Shown: positions 12,134 through 33,847 of the stretch, in pieces | How the letters are laid out: every line of letters begins with the position of its first letter | How positions within the stretch are numbered: the first letter of the stretch is position 1 | IMG/VR virus record: IMGVR_UViG_3300028888_000051 | Location: 163,384-227,383 of that record | Source: a virus | Lineage: Duplodnaviria > Heunggongvirae > Uroviricota > Caudoviricetes | DNA length: 64,000 nucleotides | Direction: 5' to 3' (one strand) | Notes under the pieces: generated by a model | Seen by the model: the letters and a program-made list of their open reading frames with translations, nothing else | Told to the model about the DNA's origin: nothing | Databases searched by the model: none | Position numbers and translations under genes: made by a program

Positions 12134-12184
12134 GAAGAGTAATTAAGGTTTCCCCCTCCTTTCCCTGATTACTCTTCTTTTTTA
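12134..12184 (+). terminator. rho-independent terminator after folA
   Basis: GAAGAGTAAT ... ATTACTCTTC stem with C-rich loop, followed by TTTTTTATATT. Confidence 0.65.
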
Positions 12185-12299
12185 TATTATTATAGTCTTA
12201 TATACAGTTATTTTTGCATAGTTTTCTTATTTAATCTAAAAATAATCTTCTAAGTTCTAAATAAACAAGTAACATTTATAAAATTTTAAGTATGTTAAA

Positions 12300-13250
12300 A
12301 TGATAGTTGGACAAAAAAGAATAATACATCGTTTTATACGACCAATAGCTGATTATGAAGAAGGTGGAATTTATTATAATCAAGTTATACCTATTGATAC
12401 ACAAGCTTATGCACATTATCCTAAAGAATATGGTAGAGATTATAATTTATGGTATGTATTTGGCGATGGTGTTCATACCTATACTGAAATTAGAGACGGT
12501 AAAGGTCTTGTTGATACAGCTAAAGAATATCCAATCTTTACACAAGAATATATAGAATCATTTGTTACGTTTGATAAATTATATGAAATACTAGATGAAG
12601 AACTCGTTGCCGAAAATATAAAATATCAAAATGAATATGATGATTATAAAAACGTTAAAGAAGGTTTAGATGCACTTCTTTATAAAGAGCCTATTGTTAC
12701 ATTATCTGGTGGTAACATATATGAAAAAGGAACTGTAGTAGATACAGTTAATTTAACTTGGGAAATAACAAAACCAGTTCGTTCACAAATATTGTTACCA
12801 GATATTGGAGATATAGATAGTAATTTAAGAGAATATACAATTGAAAATGCAAATATTTCTGAAGATACAACATTTAGTTTAATCGTAAACGATGGACAAA
12901 CAGCAACAATTGGTGAAACATCAATTATTTTTAAAAAATATATTTATTATGGTAGTTCAGCTACATTAAATTTAACGAATGAAGAAATATTAACTTTTTC
13001 AAAAAGTTTTGAAACAATTACAGAAAATTTAATAACTTTTGATTGTTCTGGTGGAAAGTATTTATATATAGTTATTCCAACAGAATATTTGAATAATATT
13101 ATACTTAAAATAAATGGATTTATTTTCAATGATGTTACAAAATCTGAAATAAATCTTATAAATGAAAGTGGATATGAATCAAGCTATGTGATTTTAAAAT
13201 CGAATAATATTCAAACATATAGTAATCTTAAAATGGAGTATTGTATATGA
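12300..13250 (+). CDS. hypothetical protein (316 aa), possibly virion/tail-associated (precedes tail fiber gene)
   Basis: ATG ORF; position only. Confidence 0.5.
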   Translation: MIVGQKRIIHRFIRPIADYEEGGIYYNQVIPIDTQAYAHYPKEYGRDYNLWYVFGDGVHTYTEIRDGKGLVDTAKEYPIFTQEYIESFVTFDKLYEILDEELVAENIKYQNEYDDYKNVKEGLDALLYKEPIVTLSGGNIYEKGTVVDTVNLTWEITKPVRSQILLPDIGDIDSNLREYTIENANISEDTTFSLIVNDGQTATIGETSIIFKKYIYYGSSATLNLTNEEILTFSKSFETITENLITFDCSGGKYLYIVIPTEYLNNIILKINGFIFNDVTKSEINLINESGYESSYVILKSNNIQTYSNLKMEYCI

Positions 13251-13696
13251 GTGATCTTTTGGGAACAAATATAGCAACCGGCATAGTTCCTTTTACTACA
13301 GAAGATGTATACCCTACACATTACTCTGAATATGGAAAAGGTGGCTGGAAACAAGTAGCTACAATAGTAGAACGAGATGCAATTTCATTAGAAAGACGTG
13401 AACTTGGAATGGTAGTATATGTTTTAGAGGAAAATAAAACTTATACACTAAAAGAAGGTCTATCAAATGAATATTGGGTTTTAATGATGCCAGTAAACAG
13501 CGGTGGTACATATATTCATACACAAGGTATTGCTTCTGCAACATGGGTTATTGAACACAATCTAGAAAAGTATCCTAGTATTACAGTAGTTACATCTTCT
13601 GGAACAATTGTTGAAGGAGATGTAGCATATAATAGTAAAAATGTTATCACCGTAACATTTAATGGAGCTTTTAAAGGAAAAGCCTACTTAAACTAA
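13247..13696 (+). CDS. hypothetical protein (about 149 aa; track start 13241 is TTG, ATG at 13247 more likely)
   Basis: ATGA overlap with upstream ORF stop. Confidence 0.5.
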   Translation: MSDLLGTNIATGIVPFTTEDVYPTHYSEYGKGGWKQVATIVERDAISLERRELGMVVYVLEENKTYTLKEGLSNEYWVLMMPVNSGGTYIHTQGIASATWVIEHNLEKYPSITVVTSSGTIVEGDVAYNSKNVITVTFNGAFKGKAYLN

Positions 13697-13755
13697 TTTA
13701 TTAATATTGTATGTGCAATATTAATTAAACTTAAACAAAATGGAGAAAAAGACAA

Positions 13756-15501
13756 ATGTCTAAAAAGTTTTTAGTTGATATTGACCTTAACGGTAATGAA
13801 TTGCAAAATGCCGTAATACAAAATCTGGCTTCTGCTCCTGAAAATCCAAAAGAAGGTCAACATTATTTTAATACTGTAGATGAGGTAGAATATTATTGGA
13901 ATGGCACACAGTGGATTAATGTTGCTGGTGATTATACATTTAAAAATGGTATTGAACAAGTTTCTGGCACACGTGATGTTCAGATTAAAGTAGCCACTGG
14001 TAATGCTGCTGGTAATATTGCAATTACTGCTAATACAGATGGTTTAGCGGCAACAGTTGCAGATGCTTCAACTACTACAAAGGGTATTATTGAAATAGCA
14101 ACTGATCAAGAAGCTGCTACAGGTACTAGTGAAGTTTTAGCAGTTAATCCAAAACAATTGGCAACAAAAGTTGATAAATTGACTTCTGGACCAACTGCCG
14201 GTACATATACTAAAGTAACAGTTAATAGTGAAGGTCAGGTTACTGCTGGTACAACTATTACCTTATCTGATGTTACTGATATCACTGCAACTGCTGCTGA
14301 AGTTAATATTTTAGATGGTATTACAGCAAATACATCTGAATTAAATATTTTAGATGGGGCCACTTTAACTACAACTGAATTAAACTATGTTGATGGTGTT
14401 ACTTCATCAATTCAAGATCAATTAGATAGCAAAGTTGCAAAAAATGCTGATATTACAGCTTCTACGACTGGTAAAACAATAATTACATATGATGCAAAAG
14501 GTCTTGTTACTGGTGGATCAGAAATTAGTATTGATAGCAATTCAACAAATTATTTAGAATTTGATACAATAAATCATAATATTAAAGCTAAAGTTGATAC
14601 TACAGTTACAGATCAATCAACCAAATTAGTAACATCTGGAGCAGTTTATACGGCTATTACAAATGCTTTAGTCGGTGGTGTTATTTATCAAGGTACTTGG
14701 GATATTACATCAGCTACTGATTTTTCTGGTATTACTCTTCCTGTTAAAAAAGGATATTTATATTATGTAATTGGTACAGGTCCTAAAACTATTGGTGGAA
14801 TCGAATGGAATGCTGGTGACTATTTATTAGTTAATGATGATGTTGATGTAGGTGGATCATTAAGTGGAAAAATTGAAAAAATTGATAACTCTGAAGCCGC
14901 TGATATTGTAAGATTAAATGCCATTCAAACTTTAACTAATAAAACAATTGATGCTGATGATAATATAATTTCTGATTTAACGACTACTAATTTAAAATCT
15001 GGTGTATTACAAACAAGTATTCGTGATGCTTTGACTGCAACTGATACTTCTTTGGCTTCAGAAAAAGCAATTCGCACAGAATTGGATACAAAACAAGATA
15101 AAGTTACTACAGCTGTTGAAAATAATTTAGCCATATGGAATGCTTCGGGTAATACAAAAGATTCAGGTAAAGCATTTGTAACAAGTATTGGTCCTTCTAG
15201 TGGAACTGGAGCAGCTACTGATAATCAAATTCCAACAGCTTTAGCTACTAGATCTGCAGTTGATACAGCGATAAGTAATAGTAAAACAACAATTAGTTGT
15301 CCAACATTAACTGCTTCTTCTGGTGTTGCTACATGGTCAATAACAGGTTTAGCAAGTGATCCTTATGCAATTACTATATTAGATTCATTAAATAATGAAG
15401 TTATTGCAGATATAACTTATGGAACTAAAGCAGCTACTATTATGTTTAATACAACAACAAATATTGAAGCTGATAGTTTTGTTGCAAAAATACTCATGTA
15501 A
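13756..15501 (+). CDS. tail fiber protein
   Basis: N-terminus MSKKFLVDIDLNGNELQNAVIQNLASAPENPKEGQHYFNT is the conserved phage tail-fibre N-terminal motif; T/G/A-rich repeats (EVNILDGITANTSELNILDGATLTTTELNYVDG). Confidence 0.7.
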   Translation: MSKKFLVDIDLNGNELQNAVIQNLASAPENPKEGQHYFNTVDEVEYYWNGTQWINVAGDYTFKNGIEQVSGTRDVQIKVATGNAAGNIAITANTDGLAATVADASTTTKGIIEIATDQEAATGTSEVLAVNPKQLATKVDKLTSGPTAGTYTKVTVNSEGQVTAGTTITLSDVTDITATAAEVNILDGITANTSELNILDGATLTTTELNYVDGVTSSIQDQLDSKVAKNADITASTTGKTIITYDAKGLVTGGSEISIDSNSTNYLEFDTINHNIKAKVDTTVTDQSTKLVTSGAVYTAITNALVGGVIYQGTWDITSATDFSGITLPVKKGYLYYVIGTGPKTIGGIEWNAGDYLLVNDDVDVGGSLSGKIEKIDNSEAADIVRLNAIQTLTNKTIDADDNIISDLTTTNLKSGVLQTSIRDALTATDTSLASEKAIRTELDTKQDKVTTAVENNLAIWNASGNTKDSGKAFVTSIGPSSGTGAATDNQIPTALATRSAVDTAISNSKTTISCPTLTASSGVATWSITGLASDPYAITILDSLNNEVIADITYGTKAATIMFNTTTNIEADSFVAKILM

Positions 15502-15528
15502 GAGTAATCTTTGTTTTTGTTATTTCAA

Positions 15529-15560
15529 GAGAGTCATATTTCAGACTCTCTTTTTATTAT
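15529..15560 (+). terminator. rho-independent terminator after tail fiber gene
   Basis: AGAGAGTC atatttca GACTCTCT followed by TTTTTATTAT. Confidence 0.7.
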
Positions 15561-15626
15561 AATATAAAAGTTCTATAAAATAAATATGTTTAAACAGTTT
15601 TTAATTAATAAAATTAGGATCCTATA

Positions 15627-18611
15627 ATGTCAGAAAAACAATTACTTATCGAATCTTCTGATTTTAATCTTACTTGTAATTTATCAGAAAAAGACAGAGA
15701 AAATTTAACTGAATCTTTAAAAATTTCTGCAGGTAAACATGGTAATTTGATTGTCAAAAATATTCCATGTACAATACTTGATAGACGTAATCAAAATGGA
15801 CGTATATATCCTACAGCTTTAATGCAAAAAGCAATTAATGAAGCTATGCCAAAAATGAAAGCTAAAATGTTAGTGTGTTCTGCTTCTGAGCATCCTTCTG
15901 GAAGTTTTTGTGAACCAGCTAATATTTCACACGCTGTTATTAATGCATATATAAAAAATGTTGAAATTGAAGTTGAAGGTAAAAAAGAAAGACATAATGT
16001 ACTTTTTAATGATTGGGAAGTATTAAATGAAAAAAGTCAAGTTGCAGCTCATGTTCAGCAATTAATTTTATCTGGATTTGGTATAGGTACATCTATTCGT
16101 TCACTAGGTTCTTGTGATCCAGATGGTACAGTAACAGAATTAGAATATTTAGGAACTGATATTGTAGGACAACCTTCATCTTCTACTTATGTTAATATGC
16201 CAATTAATGAATCAGTAGAAGTAACAACAATTCCTTTAACAGAAACTTATGTTGTATCAGCTTCTGCTACAAATGTTGTAAGAGATTTAGATTCTGCATT
16301 AGCATTATCTCAACAAATTGATTCTGCTAATTTTGGTACTGTAAAAAAGACTTCTACAAAACTTGATTCTGAGGTTGATCCTAAAACGGGTGCAGAAACA
16401 ACAATGGTTACATTAGAAACTGAAACAGAAGATGAAGTATCAGAATTAGATCAAGCATTAATGATGGCTAAACAAGCCATGTTAAATGGAAAAGCTGATA
16501 TTGATTCTGTTACAATAGAAAATATTAAAGAAGAACAACCAAAAGAATCTGTTGAAAACAAAGATGATGAAAAAGCATTAAATGAAGAGAATAAAATAAC
16601 AGAAAATCATTTTGCTCCTTTACCTCATATTACTTCAATTACAAATCATATTTTATTGAATTATCCAAAAGAAAGCGAAGCTTATAAAGTAGCTTTACAT
16701 ATTCAAAATGATTTAATTACTAATAGATTAAAAGATAGACAAGCAGCTTTAGAAGAATTAAAAAAATATGTAGATATAACTAAAGACGAATATGTACCTG
16801 AATCTGTTATGAATGAAGTAGGTGTTGATAAGTTAATGGATGAAATTCGTAACATTATGTATAATGAAGGTTTGTCTCTTGAACAGGCTTGTCGTAAATA
16901 TTGTGAACATCATGAAAATATTCCATATGAATATGTATTGGAATATATGAGAACAAATCCAGTTACTGAATCAATTACAGAAGCTAAAGAAGAAAAGCAA
17001 GAAGATCCAAATGAAGGTAAGCAATATGTTTTGAAAACTTCTCAGGGTTTTGTTGCTATGGATGGTAATGCTATTTCATTTGTAGATAATCCTAAAGAAG
17101 CTATTCATTTTATTAAGGGTAAAGAAGAATCAGGAGTTGTTCATTTATCTGGAATTAATAAAATTCTTGAAACAATGGGTATATATGATGTACAAAAATA
17201 TTTTAAAAAAGGTACAACAGATATTTCCGCACCAAATGATATAAATATACAAAATGCCAAAAATGCAGGCATCGAAGTTAAAGAGTGTGGTAATATAGAT
17301 ATGCCAATGACTGAAGATAATGGCTCAAATACACGTTTTAAAGCTACTGTAAAAATTACTGATGAAAATGGAGAGTCTTCTGAAGATATTCCTGTTTCAG
17401 CAATTGATATGGAAGGTATTAATGCTGAAATTTCTAATCTTTATGATATGAAAAAACAAAAAGGTAATCCAGTTATCACTGTTACAGATACTACTTCTGG
17501 TCAACAATTTACATATAATCCAGAGTCTCGTCAAATTGAATTAATGAATATACAAACTGAAGCGAGTGGTGATTTAGAGCAAGATGGAAATAAACTTTCT
17601 ATGGAAATTGATGATAACAATAAAGTAGAAAAAGAATTTAATTCACCGGTACAAGCCGCAGTTGCAAAAGCAGGTATTGAAGCAGGCAAACTTGGTGGTG
17701 ATGTTCTTTTGAGTGAAGATGATGAAGATTCAGATACAGCTAAATGTGCATGGTGTGGTGAAGAATTTGAAAAATCTGCATTACGTAAAGAGAAAGATTT
17801 AGGTTATCTTTGTAACACTTGTGCAAAAGGAATTCAATCAAGAGAAGGTTCATTAACATTTGAAGAAGATTTAGCAAATGATCCACATATTTATAATCAA
17901 GGAAAAGATGAAATAGATAATGGTCAAGAACCTAATATGAATAAAATTGCGGATTCTATTCGCTATATTGCTAAAAAAACTGATTGCTCACTAAAAGATG
18001 CAATGGATATCTATGAAAAGATTACAGGTTTTAAATTTGATGAAAAAGATTCTATTTCAGAAGAAGTTCATAGACCAAATTATGAAGATATAGAACCAGG
18101 ATGGTATGCAGGAGCTCAAAATATTGGTGTTACTGGACCTTATGAATCAAAAGAAACATTGCTTGCAGATTTAGGTGAAGTAGCAGATAAAATTGATATT
18201 GAATATATTTCACCAGAAGATTTAGGGCTTGCTGCTGAATCATCTAAAATAGATGAAGTATTATATAATAAACCTAGTAAGGCTTCTGATCCATTAATTA
18301 AAACACCATTAGAAGAAGATGATGATGAATCTCCAGCGGTAAATATTTTATTTAAAAATATTGATTGGAATACTAAAGACTTTATGAATTCTATGATGGC
18401 TAATATGGAAAATGATGATCCTGTTAATATAGAAGATATAAAGTCAAAAGTAAAAGATTTACCAGATGAAGCAACTATTACTGTTAAAGTTAATGAAATA
18501 CCTTTATCTGATGATAGTTTACTTGAAAAATTTTTATTTGATAAACTTGGTAAAAAGTATGCCATGAAAGTAAATAATGCAGAAATGGCAAATATAAGTT
18601 GGGCAGTATAA
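15627..18611 (+). CDS. large acidic hypothetical protein (994 aa) with internal Cys4 zinc-ribbon (CAWCG...CNTC)
   Basis: long ATG ORF; AGTTCTATAAAATAAATA motif 41 nt upstream. Confidence 0.55.
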   Translation: MSEKQLLIESSDFNLTCNLSEKDRENLTESLKISAGKHGNLIVKNIPCTILDRRNQNGRIYPTALMQKAINEAMPKMKAKMLVCSASEHPSGSFCEPANISHAVINAYIKNVEIEVEGKKERHNVLFNDWEVLNEKSQVAAHVQQLILSGFGIGTSIRSLGSCDPDGTVTELEYLGTDIVGQPSSSTYVNMPINESVEVTTIPLTETYVVSASATNVVRDLDSALALSQQIDSANFGTVKKTSTKLDSEVDPKTGAETTMVTLETETEDEVSELDQALMMAKQAMLNGKADIDSVTIENIKEEQPKESVENKDDEKALNEENKITENHFAPLPHITSITNHILLNYPKESEAYKVALHIQNDLITNRLKDRQAALEELKKYVDITKDEYVPESVMNEVGVDKLMDEIRNIMYNEGLSLEQACRKYCEHHENIPYEYVLEYMRTNPVTESITEAKEEKQEDPNEGKQYVLKTSQGFVAMDGNAISFVDNPKEAIHFIKGKEESGVVHLSGINKILETMGIYDVQKYFKKGTTDISAPNDINIQNAKNAGIEVKECGNIDMPMTEDNGSNTRFKATVKITDENGESSEDIPVSAIDMEGINAEISNLYDMKKQKGNPVITVTDTTSGQQFTYNPESRQIELMNIQTEASGDLEQDGNKLSMEIDDNNKVEKEFNSPVQAAVAKAGIEAGKLGGDVLLSEDDEDSDTAKCAWCGEEFEKSALRKEKDLGYLCNTCAKGIQSREGSLTFEEDLANDPHIYNQGKDEIDNGQEPNMNKIADSIRYIAKKTDCSLKDAMDIYEKITGFKFDEKDSISEEVHRPNYEDIEPGWYAGAQNIGVTGPYESKETLLADLGEVADKIDIEYISPEDLGLAAESSKIDEVLYNKPSKASDPLIKTPLEEDDDESPAVNILFKNIDWNTKDFMNSMMANMENDDPVNIEDIKSKVKDLPDEATITVKVNEIPLSDDSLLEKFLFDKLGKKYAMKVNNAEMANISWAV

Positions 18612-18672
18612 AACAGTTCTAATTTAATAGTAAATAATTTTTATTAATCTAGATTTTAAGGAAAAACATATT

Positions 18673-19386
18673 ATGACAAAAGAAGAATTTTTACGTCTTT
18701 TAAGTGAATCTGAAGTTAAAAATGCTGAAGATACGCTTTCTAATATTGAAACAAAAGAAGTTAAAGATGTTGAGCCTGCTGAAGGTATTAAAGGTTTAGA
18801 TTCTGAATTACCTACACAGAAAGATATCGAAAAAGAAGTAGCAAAAGATGAGGGTCCGGTTGTTCCAGCTGATAAAGATGGTGTTTCTAAAAACGGTGGT
18901 GAATGTGACTGTTTAGAAGCTGGTAAAATTGAAGCAGAACGCAAAAAAGAAGATAATAGCATGAAAGATGTTATTAACGTTTCTAGTCGTAAAGTTGAAG
19001 AAAATAGTGAAGTAAGTAATGAATTGTTAGCTCAACTGAAAGAAGCTGCTGCTCGTGAAGAAGCTATGAAAAATCAAATTACTGAAATGAAAAAACTTTG
19101 TGAAGAAGCTTTATTAGCTCAAGAAGCAGACTTAGTAAAGACTCACGCAAAAGAAATGAAAAAAGTATTTGAAGCAGTAATTGCTGAAGGCGAAAAATTT
19201 GAAAAAACTTTAACTGAATCTTCTGCTAAAAATGAAAAATTATATAAGAAAGCTCAAAAGATGTATGAAAGCTCTGCAAAATTAAATAAAATTTTGTTAG
19301 AAGCAGTAAAGAAATCTCAACCTGAACAAAAAATGGTTCGTTATCAATCTGCTACTGCAAGAGCTATGGCTTCTTTGCGTAAGTAA
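18673..19386 (+). CDS. acidic coiled-coil protein (237 aa), possibly scaffold/internal protein
   Basis: E/K-rich heptad-like sequence; motif AGTTCTAATTTAATAG upstream. Confidence 0.45.
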   Translation: MTKEEFLRLLSESEVKNAEDTLSNIETKEVKDVEPAEGIKGLDSELPTQKDIEKEVAKDEGPVVPADKDGVSKNGGECDCLEAGKIEAERKKEDNSMKDVINVSSRKVEENSEVSNELLAQLKEAAAREEAMKNQITEMKKLCEEALLAQEADLVKTHAKEMKKVFEAVIAEGEKFEKTLTESSAKNEKLYKKAQKMYESSAKLNKILLEAVKKSQPEQKMVRYQSATARAMASLRK

Positions 19387-20818: not shown

Positions 20819-21715
20819 ATGTCAAATGAATTAGTATTAAATTCAGAATGGACGCCTTTTTTAATAGAAAACAGAGCTTCTATTACATTTGATAAATTTT
20901 TAGATTTAATTAAACAATTAGATAACAATAGTTCACCAAATTTATGGACAAAATGGAAAAATTATGCTAATCAAGTAGTTATAGAAACACCAAATTACTA
21001 TTTTAAGTTATATGAAGATGATTATTTATGTGGTTCATTTTGGTCATTAATTCGCTCTACTTTAGGAGAGATATATACAAAATATTTTAATATTTTGTGG
21101 GATGTTAATATTATAAAGCAAAATAGTAAAATATATACACTCGAAAGACGTCAAAAATTAAATGTATGTATACCGAATTCAATTTTATATACTGATTTAC
21201 TTCTTAATTGGTCAAATACACTTAAAAAACTAGAAAATGAACTTTTATTATCAGAAATATGTCAACAACTTAAACCATATATTCCAGAATTAGCAGAACT
21301 TAAGTTGATACGTAATTGTATAAATAAATATGCAGATTATGCTATTACTGAAGATAATAATATTGTACTTTTAGATGATTCCGATTGGTTTATAGCTATG
21401 GTTGATAAAAACGGTAAATGGTTAAATTCAAAATTTAAAGGTTATAATATAATTTCTAGTTTAGGAGAAACAATTTTTGCTCCAGAGGGTTATTTTGATA
21501 AAGGAAATATAACTAAACATGAAGAATTTACAAATAAATGGCAAATTTATATGGAAAATATTAAAACTACAGAAATAGAAGGAATTTTATTTGATCAACG
21601 TGAACAAATGCTCAAAGATAATATATCTTTGATATTTAATCAAAAACTTTTGCCTAATCAAAATATAAAATCTTTTGATTCAGTAGGTGATTTACTTAAA
21701 ATTGGTTTTGAATAA
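20819..21715 (+). CDS. hypothetical protein (about 298 aa; track start 20789 is TTG, ATG at 20819 more likely)
   Basis: ORF; 3' end overlaps convergent radical-SAM gene by 20 nt. Confidence 0.5.
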   Translation: MSNELVLNSEWTPFLIENRASITFDKFLDLIKQLDNNSSPNLWTKWKNYANQVVIETPNYYFKLYEDDYLCGSFWSLIRSTLGEIYTKYFNILWDVNIIKQNSKIYTLERRQKLNVCIPNSILYTDLLLNWSNTLKKLENELLLSEICQQLKPYIPELAELKLIRNCINKYADYAITEDNNIVLLDDSDWFIAMVDKNGKWLNSKFKGYNIISSLGETIFAPEGYFDKGNITKHEEFTNKWQIYMENIKTTEIEGILFDQREQMLKDNISLIFNQKLLPNQNIKSFDSVGDLLKIGFE

Positions 21716-22742
21716 ATTCTCTATCACAGATAACACATTCATCAGAATCTATATAGGCGCAATAATTTAGTTGATGTCCACATTTAGCTGTAAGAAATTC
21801 TAAGCAATTACCTTCTTTTTCATTTAATTCATTTCGTGTATGTTTATTTCTATGATTTAATTGCATACGATGATTATCATCTGATTCATTGAAATTTCTA
21901 TACAAATCATCTGCACGATAAATTATATTAAAAAGTTTATCATATAAACCTGGGCAATCTTCTTTAAATTTAATTAAAAATTTTAAAAAATCTTCTCTTT
22001 TTGGAAAAAAACCCGGTAATCTTTTTTCCATTAATTGTTTAGCTTCCATGTATTGTTCAATTTTTGATAAGTTTTCATGAATAGGTTTAATTCCACCTGG
22101 AGAAGGTTGTTTAAAAAACATAGAAGTATGATATTTATTCATAAAATCATTAAAAGAAAATTCACCATTCAGATATTTGGTAATTATATCTTGAGTTAAA
22201 ATGGTACAAGTGTTAAAATTTAATGTTGGATATTTTTCATGTAAATTTAACATGTTATTTGACCAATTTTCTTGCATTTTTGGTAAATGAAAACGACCGA
22301 TCGTATCATAAGATGTAACAAGCCATACTTGATTTATTAATTCTGGTTTTCCGGCTTGAATATACATTTTTTTCATAATATCCAAAGAAGTATATAAATC
22401 TTTTTGTGAACCTATTGTAAGGGTACACATAATCCATACTTCACGTATTTTACCTGAAATTTGTAATTCTGCAGTTTTTTGCATAAGATTAAAAAATTTA
22501 TTTTTGACTTCATCTACATCAAGTTGACCTTGAAAAAATTCTCCACCTATATAAGATACTGTGTTATATGGAATCATTTTTTTGTTATCAGATAAAAAAT
22601 TATAAGCATCATCAAGTGCCTTAATTTTTAATTCTGTTGGTGTAAAGCTATTACTGTTTGCATTATAACAAAATACACATTTTTGATTACATTGATGCCA
22701 TAATTCAAACTGTAAACTCTTTTTTTCATTTATATCCATCAT
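21696..22742 (-). CDS. radical SAM protein, paralog 1 of 4 (348 aa), C-terminal 4-Cys cluster
   Basis: WHQCNQKCVFCYN (CxxxCxxC), YIGGEFF SAM-binding GGE motif, ILTQ and FFPKREDFLKF family motifs, C-terminal CGHQLNYCAYIDSDECVIC. Confidence 0.8.
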   Translation of the reverse strand: MMDINEKKSLQFELWHQCNQKCVFCYNANSNSFTPTELKIKALDDAYNFLSDNKKMIPYNTVSYIGGEFFQGQLDVDEVKNKFFNLMQKTAELQISGKIREVWIMCTLTIGSQKDLYTSLDIMKKMYIQAGKPELINQVWLVTSYDTIGRFHLPKMQENWSNNMLNLHEKYPTLNFNTCTILTQDIITKYLNGEFSFNDFMNKYHTSMFFKQPSPGGIKPIHENLSKIEQYMEAKQLMEKRLPGFFPKREDFLKFLIKFKEDCPGLYDKLFNIIYRADDLYRNFNESDDNHRMQLNHRNKHTRNELNEKEGNCLEFLTAKCGHQLNYCAYIDSDECVICDREFIQNQF

Positions 22743-23659
22743 TAGTCTCCTATCATTTCTAAAAAGTTTTCAACATCACTTCTTGGATGTATGTTAGAAT
22801 CAAAATATCCATAATTGTTTTCATCACAATAGGTATTCTTTTTATTTTCTGAATTATGTCTATCATTCATAATATAAAAATCTTTATCGTCAAATGAAGA
22901 ATAACATGTATCACTATGATTTACAATATTTATAAAATTTTCTAAATCATCTTTTGTAAACATTTTTGTTTCATAAGTATATTGTAAAAATTTAAGAAAG
23001 GTTTCTCTTCTCGGAAAAAAATTAGATAAAATTTTATTTTCGAAATCTTCAACATTTTTACATAGATGACCATAACCAGTCATTGGTAGCATATAATTTG
23101 TAAAGCAATTATAATTTTCATTGAATTCTTTTAAATTTAAACGATTAGACAACACTGCTTCTAACATAGCTTGAGTAACAATCATTTCAACATGAAGTTT
23201 TAAATTTGGATAATTTTTATGTAAAAATAACATATTATTTTGCCAATTTTTTAAAGTGTTATTATTAAATCTACCAATTATATCCCAAGAAGTACAAATC
23301 ATAAATTGATTCTGAAAGTTCTTTATATATTCACAAAATTCTAATAATTCAGAATTATCATCAAACATTAAAGCTGTTGTAATAAGACAGCGTTTAGCTA
23401 TTCCCATTTTAATTTTATTTATAAAACAGTCTATAATTTTATAAAAGTATTTTTTAACTTCAGCTGTATCTATTTCACCATTAAAAAATTCTCCACCGAT
23501 TATACCAAAATCAGAATATTTATCAGCTTCTTTTGTATTAAGAATATCTAAAACTTTTTTCATACATTTAACTTTATCTCTATGTCTAGGTATACCGTTA
23601 TTATAGCAAAATTTACATCCAAATGAACATTGTTTCCATAATTCAAATTGTAAAAACAT
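22742..23659 (-). CDS. radical SAM protein, paralog 2 of 4 (305 aa), lacks C-terminal Cys cluster
   Basis: WKQCSFGCKFCYN, IIGGEFF, MIVTQ, FFPRRETFLKF. Confidence 0.8.
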   Translation of the reverse strand: MFLQFELWKQCSFGCKFCYNNGIPRHRDKVKCMKKVLDILNTKEADKYSDFGIIGGEFFNGEIDTAEVKKYFYKIIDCFINKIKMGIAKRCLITTALMFDDNSELLEFCEYIKNFQNQFMICTSWDIIGRFNNNTLKNWQNNMLFLHKNYPNLKLHVEMIVTQAMLEAVLSNRLNLKEFNENYNCFTNYMLPMTGYGHLCKNVEDFENKILSNFFPRRETFLKFLQYTYETKMFTKDDLENFINIVNHSDTCYSSFDDKDFYIMNDRHNSENKKNTYCDENNYGYFDSNIHPRSDVENFLEMIGD

Positions 23660-23660
23660 A

Positions 23661-24584
23661 TTACTCTCCTAGTATAAGTAAATCACAAAGCATACATTCA
23701 TCTGAATCTGCATAACATCTATATAATTCACTATGACCACATTCGGTAATATTTTCTTTACCATCAGATAAAATTGGTTGTTGAGTTATATCATTATTTT
23801 TATTACGTAAACCAGTATATTTATAAATCGCCGAAGCGTTAGTTGAACTATACATATTAGTATATATCTGTGGAAAGTTTTCTTTCAAATATATACAAAA
23901 ATTAAGAAAATCTTCACGTTTGAAGAAAAAGTCATTTAATTTAAAACCAGAATGTATTGGATGAGGATATAAAAAACAAAAATTACATCCTTTTAGTTCT
24001 TCTTCTAAAAAATATTTAAAATCAAATTTGTTAGACATAATATCATCAATAAGATATTGAGTTAAAATCATTTGAACTCCAACTGCATAATTATATCTAT
24101 CTCTAAATTTTTTGATATTTTCTAAAGCTAATAATCTTTTTTCTTCTGAAGGATATCTATATTTTATATCATAAGAAAAATTTACATCTATAAATCGCAT
24201 GTCTCCTGTTTTTTCTTTGATTCTGTCTATAACACGAAATAAAAATGCTGGATCATACATTCCATTAGTTACAGTTGAATAGCGACATCTATAAGAAGTA
24301 CTAACTAATAATATTTTATTTATGATGTCATCTATTAAAAGCATAAATTCATCTTGTATATCTTTATCGGTTATAAAATACAATTCACCACCTAAAAGAG
24401 ATATACCATCAGCAAATTTATCTTTCCAATCAATATAATCCAAATTTTTTCTTATTTTATGTATTTCTTCAATAAGTCTAGATTTATCCCAAACTTCACG
24501 ATTTTTTCGTAAACAGAATTTACAGTTATTGTTACAATTTGGCCAAAGTGAATATTGATTCATATAATGTTTAATTTCTAACAT
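23661..24584 (-). CDS. radical SAM protein, paralog 3 of 4 (307 aa), C-terminal 4-Cys cluster
   Basis: WPNCNNNCKFC, LLGGELY, MILTQ, FFKREDFLNF, C-terminal CGHSELYRCYADSDECMLC. Confidence 0.8.
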   Translation of the reverse strand: MLEIKHYMNQYSLWPNCNNNCKFCLRKNREVWDKSRLIEEIHKIRKNLDYIDWKDKFADGISLLGGELYFITDKDIQDEFMLLIDDIINKILLVSTSYRCRYSTVTNGMYDPAFLFRVIDRIKEKTGDMRFIDVNFSYDIKYRYPSEEKRLLALENIKKFRDRYNYAVGVQMILTQYLIDDIMSNKFDFKYFLEEELKGCNFCFLYPHPIHSGFKLNDFFFKREDFLNFCIYLKENFPQIYTNMYSSTNASAIYKYTGLRNKNNDITQQPILSDGKENITECGHSELYRCYADSDECMLCDLLILGE

Positions 24585-25451
24585 TTACATTTTCTCCATT
24601 ATTTCTTTTAGCACTTTACAATCACAAACAAAACATTCATTTGAATCAGAATAACATTTTTTAAAATTTTCTGAATGACCACATTTACTTTTATTTGATG
24701 AGATATCAACTAGTTTTCCATTTTCAGATTTTTGTAAAATAATATTTTGATTTAAAAGAAAATTATTACAATATTCTGTACCATAACCTGGAAGTTGTTC
24801 ATTAAGTTTTAGAATAGTTTTAAAAACAGTTTCTCTTGTTGGAGCTTTTATGTCTTTTCCAAATTTTATATAGGGTATTGTATTTACTTTAACGTTATAG
24901 TTATTTTCATACTCAGCTATGTTAAATTTTTCAGATAATACATCATTACAAAAACTTCTGGTTAAAATAATATTGACATATATAAGTAACTCAGGAAATA
25001 AATTTCTAATTTCAGTGAGATTAAAATAAAATTGTTTCATAGAAAAAGAATTAGAAAATCTTCCATCTCCATCACCAGAAGTAGTAAAATGTATTCTATT
25101 TTCTAATTTATAATCTTTTATCATATTTAATATTGGTAAAAGAAGTTCATGAATATCATATAAAATATTTGTATTAATATAACATAATTCAATTTCATTT
25201 TTTAACATTTTTTCACAAGTTAATTTGAATAATTTAAATAATTGTGAATTTATTATTGTATTTTTTTCTGCAAATATTTCACCACCAACGAATAGTATAT
25301 GTGTATCAGTTAAGTCTTTTACTGCATTATATATTAATTTTATCGATTCAAGTTGTTCTTCATGAGTTTGTTGTTTTTCTCTTTTTTGCCAGCAAAATTT
25401 ACAATTATTTGGACAATTATTCCAAAGAATGAATTCATGTATAGGTAACAT
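24585..25451 (-). CDS. radical SAM protein, paralog 4 of 4 (288 aa), C-terminal Cys cluster
   Basis: WNNCPNNCKFC, FVGGEIF, IILTR, C-terminal CGHSENFKKCYSDSNECFVCDC; first gene of the operon. Confidence 0.8.
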   Translation of the reverse strand: MLPIHEFILWNNCPNNCKFCWQKREKQQTHEEQLESIKLIYNAVKDLTDTHILFVGGEIFAEKNTIINSQLFKLFKLTCEKMLKNEIELCYINTNILYDIHELLLPILNMIKDYKLENRIHFTTSGDGDGRFSNSFSMKQFYFNLTEIRNLFPELLIYVNIILTRSFCNDVLSEKFNIAEYENNYNVKVNTIPYIKFGKDIKAPTRETVFKTILKLNEQLPGYGTEYCNNFLLNQNIILQKSENGKLVDISSNKSKCGHSENFKKCYSDSNECFVCDCKVLKEIMEKM

Positions 25452-25464
25452 TTTAACTCCTCTT

Positions 25465-25503
25465 TAATTTATATTTTAGAACTGAAATGAGTTCTATATA
25501 TCA
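25465..25503. promoter_or_regulatory. divergent promoter-like region: back-to-back copies of the GTTCTA motif forming palindrome TAGAACT gaaatg AGTTCTA
   Basis: read directly; minus-strand copy faces radical-SAM operon, plus-strand copy faces ORF 25526. Confidence 0.55.
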
Positions 25504-25525
25504 TATAAAAAATAAAGGAGAAGTT

Positions 25526-26029
25526 ATGGAAAATATTAAACAATTAACTAAAGATGAAAAAATAGAAAAATTACGTGCTTATATGAAAGGTGAAATTTTA
25601 GATAATGATTTAGCCTTTAATGTATTTTTATTATTGTGTCCACCAAAAAATTTTGGTCAAGATTTTTTTGAACATGAAAAAGTAATGTATTCATCTATTA
25701 TTGAAATATGCTCTATAACAGGTTTATTAAAACAAGATATGATTGATTTTTGTAGTCAATTATTAGGTATATATGAAGCTTGTTTTAGATATTGTGTACC
25801 AATTAAAACAGAAAAACAAGAAACTAATGTACCAGAACAATATTTAAAAATTTTTGCATTATTAGATTTTCAAAGAATAGCCAAATTGTATGAAAAATAT
25901 GAGGCAGCTAATATAAATTGTAAGTATGGAGATGCTTATAAAGTAATTTATCCGTTTATGAGACAGTTTAATTTCTATGAAGATTTAATGTGTGAAAACG
26001 GATTTGAATTTGGAGATAATTGTGACTAA
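25526..26029 (+). CDS. hypothetical protein (about 167 aa; track start 25487 lies inside promoter motif, ATG 25526 with aaaggag RBS preferred)
   Basis: RBS aaaggagaag 7 nt before ATG 25526. Confidence 0.5.
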   Translation: MENIKQLTKDEKIEKLRAYMKGEILDNDLAFNVFLLLCPPKNFGQDFFEHEKVMYSSIIEICSITGLLKQDMIDFCSQLLGIYEACFRYCVPIKTEKQETNVPEQYLKIFALLDFQRIAKLYEKYEAANINCKYGDAYKVIYPFMRQFNFYEDLMCENGFEFGDNCD

Positions 26030-26816
26030 TAGTACAACAAATATTGATTCTAATGAAAAAATAACTTATGCTGTATTAACAACAAAATTTTTAGAATGGT
26101 TAAAAGCAAGTTGTAAAAATATAGGTACAGCATATGCATCAGATGTACCAGATGCAATGAAAAGTACAACATATCATAAAGATTATACCGGTACTATATC
26201 TGTTCCAGCTGATTGTAAGCCAAAATCAGCAAGTAGAAACACAAATTATAAAATGAGTATGAATATAAATAATACTTCATTACCAAATAGTTTTCCATTA
26301 GTTACTATCTCTGATATTGAAACAGATTTCAATAATTTTATGCAAGCTAGAGGTATATATACTAAATCAGATACTCCAGTTATAGCAACTGGTTTATTGG
26401 CTTTTTGGAATAATGTTGCATCATTTTGTTCAGCACGTATATATAATGTAGCTGGATTAAATGCTACAAAGGCATTACGTATGTATAAAAAATTAGGAAA
26501 AACAGTAGCTGAAATACAAGCTGCAGATAGTGGAAATAATCCATATTATAAAAAAGTTTCTACTATGACTCAAGGGTTTGTTCCAAATTCTTCACAAGGT
26601 AATTGTTTTAATAAAAATGATGTTACAAAATTATTAGATGAATTAGAAACAATTATTGGAGAGACAAATAGATTATATACTGTCACGTATGTTTTTTCAA
26701 ATAGTTTATGGTCATCATCTTGCTGTTCAAGTTCTTGTTCTTCTAGTTCATCATCTAGCTCAAGTAGTAGTTCATCATCTAGTTCAATGTTTATAGGATA
26801 TATGAAATTATATTAA
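25992..26816 (+). CDS. hypothetical protein, paralog of ORF 27969-28670, with poly-Ser/Cys C-terminal tail (start is GTG; GTG 26022 with ggag RBS also possible)
   Basis: shared motifs ETDFNNF, TGLLAFWNNV, ITY..L.T..L.W.K with ORF 27969; tail SSSCCSSSCSSSSSSSSSSSSSSSS. Confidence 0.55.
   Translation: MKTDLNLEIIVTNSTTNIDSNEKITYAVLTTKFLEWLKASCKNIGTAYASDVPDAMKSTTYHKDYTGTISVPADCKPKSASRNTNYKMSMNINNTSLPNSFPLVTISDIETDFNNFMQARGIYTKSDTPVIATGLLAFWNNVASFCSARIYNVAGLNATKALRMYKKLGKTVAEIQAADSGNNPYYKKVSTMTQGFVPNSSQGNCFNKNDVTKLLDELETIIGETNRLYTVTYVFSNSLWSSSCCSSSCSSSSSSSSSSSSSSSSMFIGYMKLY
26703..26790 (+). repeat. coding Ser-codon repeat (TCA/TCT/AGT/AGC) encoding poly-Ser/Cys tail
   Basis: tcatcatcttgctgttcaagttcttgttcttctagttcatcatctagctcaagtagtagttcatcatctagttca. 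Confidence 0.7.
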
Positions 26817-26879
26817 AAATATTCTTTAATTGCTATATATAAATTAAGTTCAATAATATAAATCATTGGAGTTTATATT

Positions 26880-27920
26880 ATGAAAGACAAAAATTTAATA
26901 ATTAAAGAATGGTTTGATATAGATGGTTTTTCAGTTAATGAATTACAAATATTAAAAGCTCATCGTCCAGAAGTAATAAAAAATTATAATATCGATTTAG
27001 AAAAATCAATGATAGATAGATTTTCTAAATTATTACCTTATAGTCATATAAATTATGGCACACATGAAATTTCTTTTTTTGAACATGCTACAGATATAAT
27101 AAATTGTTTATTTTCACAAAAAGTTGATGATAATACTTTAGTTATTGTATCTAATAATGAGCATGAAAATGTAATAAAAAATTATACACAATGCAAGAAT
27201 ATTTATGTTTTAGATTTTGATACTGAAATAATACCATGTAAATTAGATAATTTATATGCAGAATGCAGTAAATATAGAAAAGTATTTGTATATATAATAG
27301 GCACACAAGTTTCAAATGGAATAATTACACCACAATTATTTTTTGAAACATTAAAAACTTGGCTAGTATCAAATCAAAAAGAGCATGTAATGATAATTGA
27401 TGATGTGCATGGCTTATTTATAGTACCTAGAGATTATACTATATTTGATTACATCATTTATACATGTCATGCTTTAATTACACAATTTGATATGGGAATT
27501 TTAATTGCAAAGAGACCTTCTGAATTAGTAGGATATCATTATTTAAATTGGGGAATGGCTTATTTAGATGCTATAGAAATAATATTTAATCATTTAATAA
27601 AATTTTATAATTTCAAAAATATAATGTGCCAATATTTTGAAGAAGAAATTGCTGAAAAAAAGTTGACATTAAATTCTAATACAGCTCCACATATTTTTGC
27701 ACCAGAAATTCATAGACTTAGATTAAATAAAAATGATTTTGATGAGATATTTTATGAATTAAAAAAGTATGATATGCGTATTGAGGGAGGATTTGATGAA
27801 AATGGTAAATGTAATTCTAGATTATATCTTCGAATAAGAGAAGGGCAATACTTTACACATCCAGAAAGATTAATTCCAGGTTTAGAAATAGCTAAGTCAA
27901 TTTTTAGTACAATAGAATAA
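26880..27920 (+). CDS. hypothetical protein (346 aa) with weak resemblance to PLP-dependent aminotransferase class-V fold; catalytic Lys not evident
   Basis: IIDDVHGLFIVP...DYIIYTCHALITQFDMGILIAKR resembles DA.Q..G...D..SgHK..GP.G.G.L..R pattern of NifS/IscS-like enzymes but HK replaced by HA. Confidence 0.3.
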   Translation: MKDKNLIIKEWFDIDGFSVNELQILKAHRPEVIKNYNIDLEKSMIDRFSKLLPYSHINYGTHEISFFEHATDIINCLFSQKVDDNTLVIVSNNEHENVIKNYTQCKNIYVLDFDTEIIPCKLDNLYAECSKYRKVFVYIIGTQVSNGIITPQLFFETLKTWLVSNQKEHVMIIDDVHGLFIVPRDYTIFDYIIYTCHALITQFDMGILIAKRPSELVGYHYLNWGMAYLDAIEIIFNHLIKFYNFKNIMCQYFEEEIAEKKLTLNSNTAPHIFAPEIHRLRLNKNDFDEIFYELKKYDMRIEGGFDENGKCNSRLYLRIREGQYFTHPERLIPGLEIAKSIFSTIE

Positions 27921-27968
27921 AGTTCTAAATTTATATTAATATAAACAAATAATTTTAATGGTAATATT

Positions 27969-28670
27969 ATGGCAATTGATCCTACAAATACACTTACATA
28001 TAATGAATTAAAAACTGATACTTTAAATTGGATAAAAACTATTCCACAAAATGTTGGTTCATATAAAAGTACTGTACATGCATCTTTAAGAGATCCAAAT
28101 TGGAGTAAAACATTAACTCAATATAATTATAATTGGGAATATAGATATACATATAATAAACAAGGAAATCCAACAAAAGCTGATAGATATCGTACACATA
28201 TTGATTTGATTGCCAAAATAAATACAGCTACAATTATTCCAGTAGTAACAGCAACACAAATTGAAACAGATTTTAATAATTTTTTAACTACAGCTAATAT
28301 TAATTCACGTTTAAATGGAATAGTTACAACATCTGGACTTTTAAATTTTTGGGATAATGTAGTATGTTTTTTATATAAACATTTGGTTAGTGTTTCTAGT
28401 AATGATGCACCAAATGGTGTTTTAATGTATTGGTCAACTTCAACATATAATTATAAATATGTTACTAAATTATCAGATAACTATACTACAGTACCAAGTG
28501 AAACAAAAATTACAGCACAAGATATGTTAGATATGTTAACCACATTAGAAGAAACTTATAATTTTGCACATCGAACACATATTGTTACTTATTCGATAAC
28601 AAAAACGACAACTGTTACAAAATTAGCTACTGGTGTTGCACCTGGTACTTATGAATCACCTGAATCATAA
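27969..28670 (+). CDS. hypothetical protein (233 aa), paralog of ORF 25992-26816
   Basis: IETDFNNFLTTANINSRLNGIVTTSGLLNFWDNVV matches paralog; AGTTCTAAAT motif upstream. Confidence 0.55.
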   Translation: MAIDPTNTLTYNELKTDTLNWIKTIPQNVGSYKSTVHASLRDPNWSKTLTQYNYNWEYRYTYNKQGNPTKADRYRTHIDLIAKINTATIIPVVTATQIETDFNNFLTTANINSRLNGIVTTSGLLNFWDNVVCFLYKHLVSVSSNDAPNGVLMYWSTSTYNYKYVTKLSDNYTTVPSETKITAQDMLDMLTTLEETYNFAHRTHIVTYSITKTTTVTKLATGVAPGTYESPES

Positions 28671-29362: not shown

Positions 29363-30163
29363 CTAAGAAAATAACTTTACAAGCTTTTGCCAGAATGTAT
29401 CTGGATTTTTAACTTTTGCAACTATTACCTCTTCTTTTTTATTTTTAATAATAGATTGGCCAGAGAGTAAATAGTTTTTAAGATCATCATACTCAGCATT
29501 ATACCTCGCTTTATATTCTGGATACTTGATCTTTCTATATGTATATAATTTTTCTAAAAATTTTTCTTTCGTAAGAATATTTTTATTAAAACATATACTT
29601 TGGAAGATTTTATAAGCACCACCTTGTCCATGTTGTATAATAGTAGACTTAACTGCTGCTTGAATAGCATTATCTTCAGAAGCCCAAGATGTTAATTTAT
29701 TAAAATTACTATTGCCGTTTTTATCCATACGAATATAAACAGGAATTATTTCTTTTTTTAATAAAAAATTATCATATGAATTTCTAAAAGATTTTTCAGT
29801 AGCTATTTTCTTCCATATATTTATAAAATTTTTATTACCAGCATATGCAGCTCTATAACCACCTGCTTGTATTAATATATCATAATACTTATAATTATTA
29901 TCTTTTAAATATGTTAAAAAGAAATCAAAAGTAGATGGTAAATTGTTCTTTCTCCAAGTAGATATTTGCCACTTTCCATAAGAATAACCACCATATCCAT
30001 CCTTACTTATTGCTTGATACCCTAATTTACCACATTCATATTTTGCTACAATATCATGCTTTGTATGAAGAGCATCATAATTTGTTTTGGCTTGAACTGT
30101 TACTATATTTCCAAAAATAACTAAAGTTATATAATAACTTAACCAAAAGATTTGTTTAATCAT
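29363..30163 (-). CDS. secreted protein with signal peptide; weak lysozyme-like (GH108-type E.G...D.GG..YG) motif
   Basis: N-terminal MIKQIFWLSYYITLVIFGNIVTVQA signal; YECGKLGYQAISKDGYGGYSYGKWQIS. Confidence 0.35.
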   Translation of the reverse strand: MIKQIFWLSYYITLVIFGNIVTVQAKTNYDALHTKHDIVAKYECGKLGYQAISKDGYGGYSYGKWQISTWRKNNLPSTFDFFLTYLKDNNYKYYDILIQAGGYRAAYAGNKNFINIWKKIATEKSFRNSYDNFLLKKEIIPVYIRMDKNGNSNFNKLTSWASEDNAIQAAVKSTIIQHGQGGAYKIFQSICFNKNILTKEKFLEKLYTYRKIKYPEYKARYNAEYDDLKNYLLSGQSIIKNKKEEVIVAKVKNPDTFWQKLVKLFS

Positions 30164-33184: not shown

Positions 33185-33847
33185 ATGCCAGTATATTTCG
33201 GAAACAGTAATAAAATAAAAGAAATGTATTATGGAAGGACTAAGATAAAAGAAGCTTATTATGGTTCTACGTTAGTTTATAAGAGTACACATTATAAACC
33301 AAATGAGGTAATCTATGAATCATCAACAGCTGGAAGCACTACACTTAATTTATTAGATAATGGTAAATATGAAGTCATTTGTATTGCAGGCGGAGGTGGT
33401 GGTAAGCAATTTAAATATGGTTCTGATATTACTGATCCAATAATTAATTACGGTGGTGGTTCAGGTTCTGGATTTGATTGTATTTTACAATTAACAAGTG
33501 GAAGTTATACAGTGACTGTAGGTGCAGCAGGTGTTAGAAATACGGATCACTCAACAACTTCATCTGGTTCTGGTGGCAATTCACGATTTGGAACATCTTA
33601 TGCTTATGGTGGAGGTGGTGGTAAATATAATGCAGTTGGACCAAAAGGAGAGGCTCCAAGTATAACTTACACAATAATATCTACTACTTTTAATAAAGCC
33701 GGTAATAACGGAACTAGAGATGTTGGTTCGACTGCCGCAGGTGGTGCTTCTGTTTATGATAATACAGCAACCGGCTATGGTGCAGGTGGTAGAAGCAATC
33801 AAAATGGCCATGCAGGTTATGTAAAAGTTATTTATAAAGGAAGTTAA
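33185..33847 (+). CDS. glycine-rich tail-fiber adhesin, gp38-like (tentative)
   Basis: multiple GGGGG/GSGSG glycine-rich motifs separating variable segments; position immediately after distal fibre gene. Confidence 0.45.
   Translation: MPVYFGNSNKIKEMYYGRTKIKEAYYGSTLVYKSTHYKPNEVIYESSTAGSTTLNLLDNGKYEVICIAGGGGGKQFKYGSDITDPIINYGGGSGSGFDCILQLTSGSYTVTVGAAGVRNTDHSTTSSGSGGNSRFGTSYAYGGGGGKYNAVGPKGEAPSITYTIISTTFNKAGNNGTRDVGSTAAGGASVYDNTATGYGAGGRSNQNGHAGYVKVIYKGS

Follow-up and report, generated by a model that had tools for sequence, protein, structure and literature searches.

The window that we discuss here, a stretch of 64,000 nucleotides, is one strand of the genome of a tailed virus (Caudoviricetes; IMG/VR record IMGVR_UViG_3300028888_000051, positions 163,384 to 227,383). 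Four consecutive genes of its minus strand, rs1 to rs4, code for radical S-adenosylmethionine (SAM) proteins, and the plus-strand cluster that diverges from them (25526-28670) encodes a protein, p274, which bears close to its end a tract made of serine and cysteine only. We infer, with a probability of roughly 0.68, that these genes form a phage-encoded maturation system akin to those of peptides that are made on ribosomes and modified after translation (RiPPs), the substrate of which would be the Ser/Cys tail of p274. The initial annotation of this DNA, which saw in the quartet an undescribed modification module, had put forward two possible roles, hypermodification of DNA or nucleotides and maturation of a protein such as the tailed one. 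A literature search found no description of a module of this type, the linkage of the quartet to its partners is conserved, and it is the maturation of the tailed protein that is favoured, by co-occurrence in relatives both from enzymes to tail and from tail to enzymes, the latter at 11 sites of 11.

The four open reading frames (ORFs) are indeed found with the positions and lengths first given for them (Table 1). Compared pairwise by BLASTP they align over their full length, with 20-30% identity and E values between 1e-11 and 3e-30, and it is therefore certain that they are paralogs, as had been proposed, far beyond anything that chance would produce. W15, C18, C22, C25, G66, G67 and E68 are invariant in a four-way alignment, so that the W-x2-C-x3-C-x2-C triad and the GGE motif are present in each of the four proteins; with CX3CX2C and GGE placed in a partial TIM-barrel core, they belong to the Radical SAM superfamily. 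Two motifs thought to be private to the family fare unevenly: [IM]ILTQ and FFP[KR]RE[DT]FL[KN]F are complete in rs1 and rs2, while rs3 has FFFKREDFLNF and rs4 is divergent. The second cysteine cluster announced for three of the four proteins, CGH...C...C-x2-C, does end rs1, rs3 and rs4, and not rs2; its core, C-G-H...Y-x-D...C-x2-C, comprises three invariant cysteines and a histidine, to which a fourth cysteine is added in rs3 and in some members of the rs1 and rs4 groups. As for the layout, the tight coupling of the genes stands, but not the overlaps of 1-4 nt that were thought to make it, since of the three junctions one overlaps by 1 nt (TAATG), one leaves a gap of 1 nt and one abuts directly (TAAATG), with GGAG ahead of each. 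The quartet genes are predicted to be translationally coupled. The short region that separates rs4 from the plus-strand genes may act as a control region common to both sides; a scan for sigma-70 promoters displayed no enrichment, with 89 sites against 92 expected.

The family to which these proteins belong is large, a profile search having recovered at least 600 radical-SAM homologues, all metagenomic or without informative name, many of them on contigs of 200-290 kb. In a tree of 36 members drawn from a variety of loci, four orthogroups (rs1 to rs4) separate, each with at least one member per lineage, besides extra lineage-specific copies such as the three rs1 genes of the relative L001; the idea that the four genes had diverged in situ is thereby abandoned in favour of four ancient groups. 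Orthologues are 32-63% identical to the window proteins (rs3 is the best conserved orthogroup, with up to 55% identity between the window protein and its orthologues), whereas the window paralogs share only 20-30% with one another, and it would follow that the quartet is ancestral and has long been retained as a non-redundant set. The absence of the C-terminal Cys motif is likewise a property of the rs2 group, being seen in seven of the eight sequences placed in it; the exception is a basal one (L005, 13061-13963).

We may now turn to the putative substrate. A pair of paralogs, one of them with a Ser/Cys-rich tail, had been noticed next to the quartet, and this is what is found: p274 and p233 match with a BLASTP E value of 1e-14, and p274 alone continues beyond the shared domain (the N-domain hereafter) into a tail that reads SSSCCSSSCSSSSSSSSSSSSSSSS-MFIGYMKLY. 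The likely start of p274 is the GTG codon at 26022, which has GGAG upstream and agrees with the start of the homologue P0150. An exhaustive profile search with the N-domain gave 221 representatives, and the tail is present in about 85 of the best 152 of these. Among 79 tails that parsed cleanly, the length of the tract is 20.4±4.7 residues; Ser makes up 81% of it, Cys 16%, Thr 2% and Asn 1%. At least one cysteine is present in 77 of them (the mean is 3.3), the two others having none, and cysteines are placed early, with 98 of 259 in the first fifth of the tract and 23 in the last (permutation p<2e-4). After the tract comes h-F-I-[AGV]-Y-M-[KNDR]-[IL], and in 53 of the 79 tails the protein ends exactly seven residues past the phenylalanine. 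As TCN and AGY codons are both used in the tracts, in mixture, an origin as a slippage-generated repeat was rejected, and the tract appears to be selected at the protein level. The chemistry that it would undergo probably involves a beta-hydroxyl or beta-thiol side chain, since almost solely Ser and Cys are tolerated. We propose to see in the tract a 'core' on which the radical-SAM enzymes would act, and in MFIGYMKLY an element of recognition or docking. Automated surveys must under-count this family, as the public gene caller missed the tailed gene in 288 kb phages: in L001 it lies at 4027-4686 (plus strand), overlapping a called gene of 255 aa in another frame.

Linkage between tail and enzymes was approached from both ends. 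Starting from the enzymes, hidden Markov model (HMM) scans of 37 loci reveal that, where at least three radical-SAM genes of the family are present, the locus almost always holds one or two tailed proteins together with a gene of the p180 family (the first gene of the plus-strand cluster), and that p346, another product of this cluster, is there in about half of them. In four relatives of about 288 kb (L001 to L004) all genes are on a single strand, in the order p180-family gene, tailed p274 orthologue, tail-less paralog, rs4, rs2, p346 orthologue, rs3, two rs1 copies, a 158-aa ORF and a third rs1 copy. Starting from the tail, IMG/VR was searched with a DNA pattern restricted to six codons of the Ser/Cys type, a free codon and F-I-A-Y-M. 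It returned 11 sites, every one of them the C-terminus of an N-domain-family protein and every one with radical-SAM genes within 1-2 kb; one contig among them holds two modules. In L017, L023 and L029 the tailed genes even lie between radical-SAM genes. This association, which bears out the link first suspected between the quartet and ORFs 25526-28670, thus persists in both directions across lineages in which gene order and strand have been rearranged. RiPP-type clusters have a precursor with a modifiable core next to its maturases, and the two-way co-occurrence agrees with this layout. Exceptions, which may count against a role of the tail as substrate, are four arrays without a tail in the DNA examined: L026, whose contig is 10 kb long, L032, L024, truncated by the end of its contig, and L030, which shares a contig with the tailed locus L028. 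A contig of 170 kb (IMGVR_UViG_3300045988_157480, loci L015 and L017) carries two modules, each with its own pair of tailed and tail-less proteins and its own radical-SAM genes.

What kind of protein would bear this tail? No relative of the N-domain has been solved or annotated (a PDB profile search was negative, and Pfam and PHROGs gave nothing reliable). A number of relatives have it fused with a glycine-rich domain (Pfam Gly_rich_2 / ALK-LTK); thus P0199, the 76%-identical orthologue of p233, continues into a domain that is 40% identical to window ORF 33185-33847, itself above the Gly_rich_2 threshold and matching a PHROG named 'tail fiber assembly', while a PDB profile search with the glycine-rich proteins had no significant match. 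Around the modules of the window and of its relatives are genes for endolysin, for a prohead-protease-like protein and for tail or virion proteins. We can therefore understand the N-domain, as far as these fusions and neighbours tell, as the first half of a protein of the fibre or adhesin type, in which the Ser/Cys tail of p274 would replace the glycine-rich domain. A relationship of the latter with the gp38-type adhesin of T-even phages is an assumption of ours that we do not claim, the PHROG match being the single point in its favour.

The nature of the enzymes is consistent with a polypeptide substrate. When the four paralogs were combined in a profile, the sole significant match in the PDB was YydG/EpeE (E 9e-6), which was again the only one for a profile of 47 sequences of the rs1 group (E 3e-3); it spans the core domain, and the FFPKREDFLKF segment aligns as well. 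A profile of rs4 had no matches in the same search. The AlphaFold2 (AF2) model of rs1, with a pLDDT of 93, retrieved EpeE as its nine best Foldseek matches (E 1.6e-6, TM ~0.4), then HydG and CteB. Pfam Radical_SAM and Fer4_12 matches to the four proteins are all below threshold and mostly N-terminal, NCBIfam matches are weak and N-terminal as well (viperin is among them, and PapB, with 21.6 bits for a cut-off of 340), and PHROGs gave one generic 'radical SAM' match. No curated family claims the quartet, and the identities NrdG, PflA and QueE are therefore ruled out: scores fall far short of the curated NrdG/PflA cut-offs, with 13.6-18.1 bits for NrdG models (cut-offs 126-152), and the QueE model gives 12.5 bits (cut-off 300), so that the faint resemblance to NrdG/PflA activases mentioned in the initial annotation is faint indeed, and goes no further than the superfamily. 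SPASM domains have a C-terminal motif of seven cysteines and two auxiliary [4Fe-4S] clusters, and the Twitch domain is a truncated SPASM with a single cluster. A classification as SPASM, which had been contemplated, fails because the C-terminal cysteines are too few, four at most and none in rs2; their number is compatible with one twitch cluster, a zinc site being equally possible, and the Cys/His site could bind either. Profiles and models both place the quartet in the neighbourhood of the SPASM/twitch group, whose enzymes modify peptides and proteins, with a nearest member that differs between methods and relationships that are all distant.

EpeE, the epipeptide epimerase of Bacillus subtilis (PDB 8AI1-8AI6), is thus the closest known enzyme by PDB profile and by Foldseek, with a similarity that is weak. 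It is a protein of about 320 aa without N-terminal RRE, with one auxiliary cluster in a shortened 'T-SPASM' domain and a ribosomal peptide as substrate, and its Cys223 gives a hydrogen atom to the C-alpha radical (PMC13012085). The phage enzymes are similar in size and, since they begin right at the cluster motif, have no N-terminal RRE either. They differ from EpeE in that they lack a conserved counterpart of Cys223, as alignments of 47 and 53 sequences contain no invariant or near-invariant cysteine outside the two cluster motifs. A complete SPASM domain, two auxiliary clusters and recognition of C/S-x-P/A-x-R characterize the anaerobic sulphatase maturase anSME (PDB 4K36), whereas the phage enzymes have four C-terminal cysteines at most and the phage tails have neither Pro nor Arg; no significant sequence match to anSME appeared in the PDB profile searches. 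Compared with SkfB, CteB and PapB, which form the thioethers of sacti- and ranthipeptides, scores are far under the cut-offs, the full SPASM is absent, two of the 79 tails are free of cysteine and the acceptor region is pure Ser.

The two remaining partners deserve comment. The p180 family, found in most modules and described as helical, has no known relative (no Pfam or PDB match, nothing reliable in PHROGs); the 'L1_255' proteins of relatives align to it with an hhalign probability of 98.2% (E 2.8e-14), and both make up one family. The neighbour that had been called PLP-fold-like, p346, was confirmed as such by structure prediction. Its AF2 model (pLDDT 95) retrieves with Foldseek KBL, AEP transaminase, NifS/IscS and AONS (E 1.5e-14 to 1e-12, TM 0.59-0.66), while a PDB profile search had no significant match. 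There is a caveat to this pyridoxal phosphate (PLP) fold, however: position 198, where the Schiff-base lysine would be expected after T195-x-H197, is Ala in 33 homologues, Ser in 7 and Val in 7, with lysine in none of the 47, this site being assigned by collinearity of motifs rather than by residue-level structural alignment. The pocket residues E94, H95, D174, T195, H197 and R320 do not vary, and at position 177 His or Gln is found. Because the pocket is kept while the lysine is missing from all 47 sequences, p346 would be either a non-canonical cofactor enzyme or a binding or scaffold protein; its orthologue sits inside the radical-SAM arrays of relatives.

Around the conserved genes is a variable periphery. 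L032 adds to its operon a family 2 glycosyltransferase (GT2), two carbamoyltransferases, an RmlB-like dehydratase and a DegT aminotransferase; L006, a locus with a pair of tailed proteins, adds DegT and two GT2 genes; L025 and the contig of L028 and L030 have carbamoyltransferases, and L029 and L023 a radical-SAM enzyme of the MiaB/RimO type. This combination of a conserved core with swappable and largely hydroxyl-directed tailoring enzymes is, by analogy, reminiscent of biosynthetic gene clusters, and would suit a Ser-rich substrate. By the radical-SAM/glycan operon of L032 are also two fibre-like proteins (12805-14724 and 14726-16015, minus strand) that end in Hint/PT-HINT (intein-like) domains and have near-identical C-terminal halves, the second being judged from its translation only.

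We can thus picture how maturation of the p274 tail might proceed. The core of the system would comprise the four non-redundant enzymes rs1 to rs4, p180 and the fibre- or adhesin-like p274. Each enzyme would cleave SAM reductively at its CX3CX2C cluster and take a hydrogen atom from a Ser or Cys of the tail, presented to it by the terminal motif, by p180 and p346, or by both. In rs1, rs3 and rs4 the C-terminal site (three or four Cys and a His) would assist, possibly through one twitch-like auxiliary cluster, and rs2, deprived of it, probably performs a different step; indeed, the retention of four paralogs of which one is without the auxiliary site suggests several distinct steps or a hetero-oligomer. 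Tailoring proper to each lineage would then act on the tract or on its products, through GT2, DegT, the RmlB-like dehydratase, carbamoyltransferases, the MiaB/RimO-like enzyme or the lysine-less p346, and a protein associated with the tail fibre would probably come to bear an appendage of altered chemistry. Provided that the tail is the substrate, we would tentatively favour oxidation of Ser and Cys at C-beta to formylglycine-type aldehydes, a reaction known from anSME and, with other substrates, from twitch dehydrogenases, which would explain why nothing but Ser and Cys is tolerated in the tract. Thioether cross-links from Cys to carbon come second and are somewhat unlikely, drawing on the similarity to SkfB and CteB and on the early placement of the cysteines; C-alpha epimerization, suggested by the similarity to EpeE, is the third and a rather improbable choice. 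At its most ambitious the proposal is that large phages of gut and rumen use a four-enzyme machine and swappable tailoring to turn the genetically simple poly-Ser/Cys tail of a tail-fibre protein of adhesin type into a non-proteinogenic polymer, with odds that we place a little below even; a poly-aldehyde, a cross-linked tract, a tract of D-residues and a glycosylated or carbamoylated tract are candidates.

The strongest of the competing explanations, an unlikely one in our opinion, is that the module makes a glycan or a small molecule, the radical-SAM paralogs acting on nucleotide-sugars or the like, with a tail that would be a mere acceptor for O- or S-glycosylation or carbamoylation, or with a product destined to the host surface. 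The tailoring genes just listed belong to some lineages only: no gene for a glycosyltransferase or for sugar-nucleotide synthesis was seen in the module of the window, in the 288 kb phages of the L001 type or in L005, L009, L010 and L035, so that the conserved core is devoid of identified sugar attachment, and the single significant relative of the quartet at the sequence level in the PDB is a peptide epimerase. It is quite improbable that the tail is cut from a 200-aa 'leader' to be released as a free modified peptide (toxin, signal or lysis factor). A large N-terminal part and a C-terminal core lying beside radical-SAM maturases is certainly a typical RiPP layout, early cysteines and late acceptors are reminiscent of sactipeptides, and a submitter's HHpred-style name on one homologue cites CteA/SCIFF. 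Yet among module ORFs scanned against Pfam there is no protease and no transporter or exporter, the 'leader' is a folded domain that makes the front half of glycine-rich, tail-fibre-type proteins in relatives, and the module lies among virion genes.

Hypermodification of DNA or nucleotides, with radical-SAM and PLP-fold enzymes tailoring a modified base, gained no support and is even less probable. Phage thymidine-hypermodification clusters do include radical-SAM and PLP enzymes, and the window encodes serine hydroxymethyltransferase, thymidine kinase and a QueC-like protein. The latter is unlinked, however, 17 kb away, and neither the module nor 20 other ORFs of the 64-kb window, which is probably a small part of the genome, display a hydroxymethylase, a base kinase or aGPT-Pplase in Pfam scans; leaving QueC aside, these 20 ORFs matched no other nucleotide-modifying family either. 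QueE remains far under its cut-off, p346 is without catalytic lysine, the partners that evolution kept are a tailed fibre-like protein and p180 rather than nucleotide enzymes, and the nearest relatives of the quartet modify peptides or proteins. Least probable of all is a coincidental neighbourhood, in which a quartet devoted to something else (activation of glycyl radicals, metabolic boost) merely shares a late-gene region with the tail, for although N-terminal profile matches to NrdG/PflA-type activases exist and some arrays have no tail in the DNA examined, these matches are far below the NrdG cut-offs and linkage holds both ways across rearranged lineages, down to tailed genes inserted between radical-SAM genes.

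Maturation of the p274 tail by the quartet would have few precedents. Radical-SAM maturases are known for bacterial peptides and a few cellular proteins, and no phage module of this type was found reported; the finding would belong with the familiar maturation of ribosomal polypeptides by such enzymes, with a substantial chance that it is something more unusual. Were the tail the substrate, it would make a new enzyme-substrate class with an unusually simple and repetitive core, attractive to enzymologists and to protein engineers wishing to introduce aldehydes, cross-links or D-residues, and it would give phages a new route to build or diversify the structures by which they interact with their hosts. 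If it is indeed turned into a polymer, we would have a protein-anchored natural product for host recognition or virion protection, diversified by chemistry and not by sequence, and the first case of a phage structural protein matured by radical-SAM enzymes, a new RiPP-like class. The families defined here, four new radical-SAM subfamilies, a lysine-less PLP-fold family and those of p180 and the N-domain, are left unnamed by current annotation pipelines.

Among phages, enzymes encoded by mycobacteriophages reportedly decorate virion proteins after translation, by glycosylation. The likeness lies in the GT2, DegT or carbamoyltransferase genes of some module lineages, and the difference in a core of four radical-SAM enzymes where mycobacteriophages use glycosyltransferases only, most modules, that of the window included, having no glycosyltransferase that we could find. 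Campylobacter phages of the CP220 group, AT-rich and distantly T4-like, are noted for their radical-SAM genes (PMC3322345). In the first 50 of 177 kb, these genes were rejected as members of the family, with 21.7 bits at best against 150-460 for members; they are scattered, and there is no homologue of the N-domain, p346 or p180. The cultured Ralstonia jumbo phage RsoM3USA (L038, PQ309151.1) has at 6665-19086 five CX3CX2C genes, one of them a distant relative of the family (56.7 bits), with 2-oxoglutarate-Fe(II) oxygenases and two dihydrofolate reductase genes, next to virion genes. A 186-aa protein (7733-8293) ends there with CHSSCHTSCHGSRGRR, CHSSCHTSCHGS being the protein ending seen beside the family relative; an analogous system of tail and maturases is possible.

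Table 1. Features of the radical-SAM module and of its surroundings in the window
Feature	Position	Strand	Remarks
rs1, radical-SAM paralog, 348 aa, orthogroup rs1	21696-22742	minus	C18/C22/C25, GGE, C-terminal motif CGHQLNYCAYIDSDECVIC
rs2, radical-SAM paralog, 305 aa, orthogroup rs2	22742-23659	minus	cluster motif and GGE, without C-terminal Cys motif
rs3, radical-SAM paralog, 307 aa, orthogroup rs3	23661-24584	minus	four-Cys C-terminal motif CGHSELYRCYADSDECMLC
rs4, radical-SAM paralog, 288 aa, orthogroup rs4, first gene of the operon	24585-25451	minus	strong ribosome-binding site AAAGAGGAG
Short divergent intergenic region, rs4 to plus-strand partners	25452-25525		from the sequence
p180-family protein, 167 aa from ATG 25526	25526-26029	plus	ORF opens at 25487
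p274, tailed protein: p274/p233-family N-domain and Ser/Cys tail	26022-26816	plus	ORF opens at 25992
Ser/Cys tract, 25 residues (21 Ser, 4 Cys)	26712-26786	plus	mixed TCN/AGY codons
C-terminal motif MFIGYMKLY	26787-26813	plus	family consensus h-F-I-[AGV]-Y-M-x-[IL]-COOH
p346, fold-type I PLP-enzyme fold without Schiff-base lysine	26880-27920	plus	AF2 and Foldseek
p233, tail-less paralog of p274	27969-28670	plus	BLASTP; orthologue P0199
Glycine-rich protein (Pfam Gly_rich_2; PHROG 'tail fiber assembly')	33185-33847	plus	outside the module proper

As regards distribution, searches of GenBank phages (megablast with 8 kb, tblastn with rs1, rs3 and rs4) found no homologue save one marginal match in a Ralstonia phage. 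A locus search with a single rs3 sequence gave no relatives, an alignment being required as query. In 185,579 species genomes only 11 loci were found, all of them on contigs of metagenome-assembled genomes (MAGs), several of 245-283 kb, with mutually inconsistent taxonomy and none from an isolate; for this reason the family looks restricted to phages. One of the MAGs comes explicitly from water-buffalo rumen, and taxon labels are of gut type. Expansion is extreme in a contig of 69 kb (CAVAWT010000007.1, loci L028 and L030), which has about a dozen family radical-SAM genes, two proteins of double length without Pfam match (740 and 694 aa; L028, 8858-11080 and 14098-16182), two carbamoyltransferases and a BspA-type leucine-rich repeat protein.

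Several other ORFs of the window may be recorded. A plus-strand ORF of 300 aa (3282-4184) has a GGE-like ICGGEITVL and a Cys-rich C-terminus, CYNCDSKLRC...CSGF, without CX3CX2C. By these traits it resembles a degenerate protein of the radical-SAM/SPASM kind, but it was rejected as a fifth, degenerate paralog, as it matches no family HMM, Pfam or PHROG. The QueC-like gene (42944-43663, minus strand; Pfam PF06508, 36.8 bits, in the C-terminal part only), which lies apart from the module, may point to a 7-deazaguanine pathway encoded in another part of the genome. Just downstream of the module, adjoining the thymidine kinase gene, a 266-aa minus-strand product (29363-30163) combines an N-terminal hydrophobic segment with a VgrG3-like C-terminal domain (Pfam PF21277, 36.3 bits). 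The first ~250 residues of a 994-aa protein (15627-18611, plus strand) match a head-maturation-protease PHROG (E 1e-11), the rest being acidic. Judging by translation, a terminase-like protein of 1045 aa (51207-54344, minus strand) is apparently interrupted by an intein (CLTGDTIVAT ... IIAHNC), and one of 649 aa (55218-57167, plus strand) consists largely of about ten tandem repeats like KQTNLKKYGVEH.SQ.

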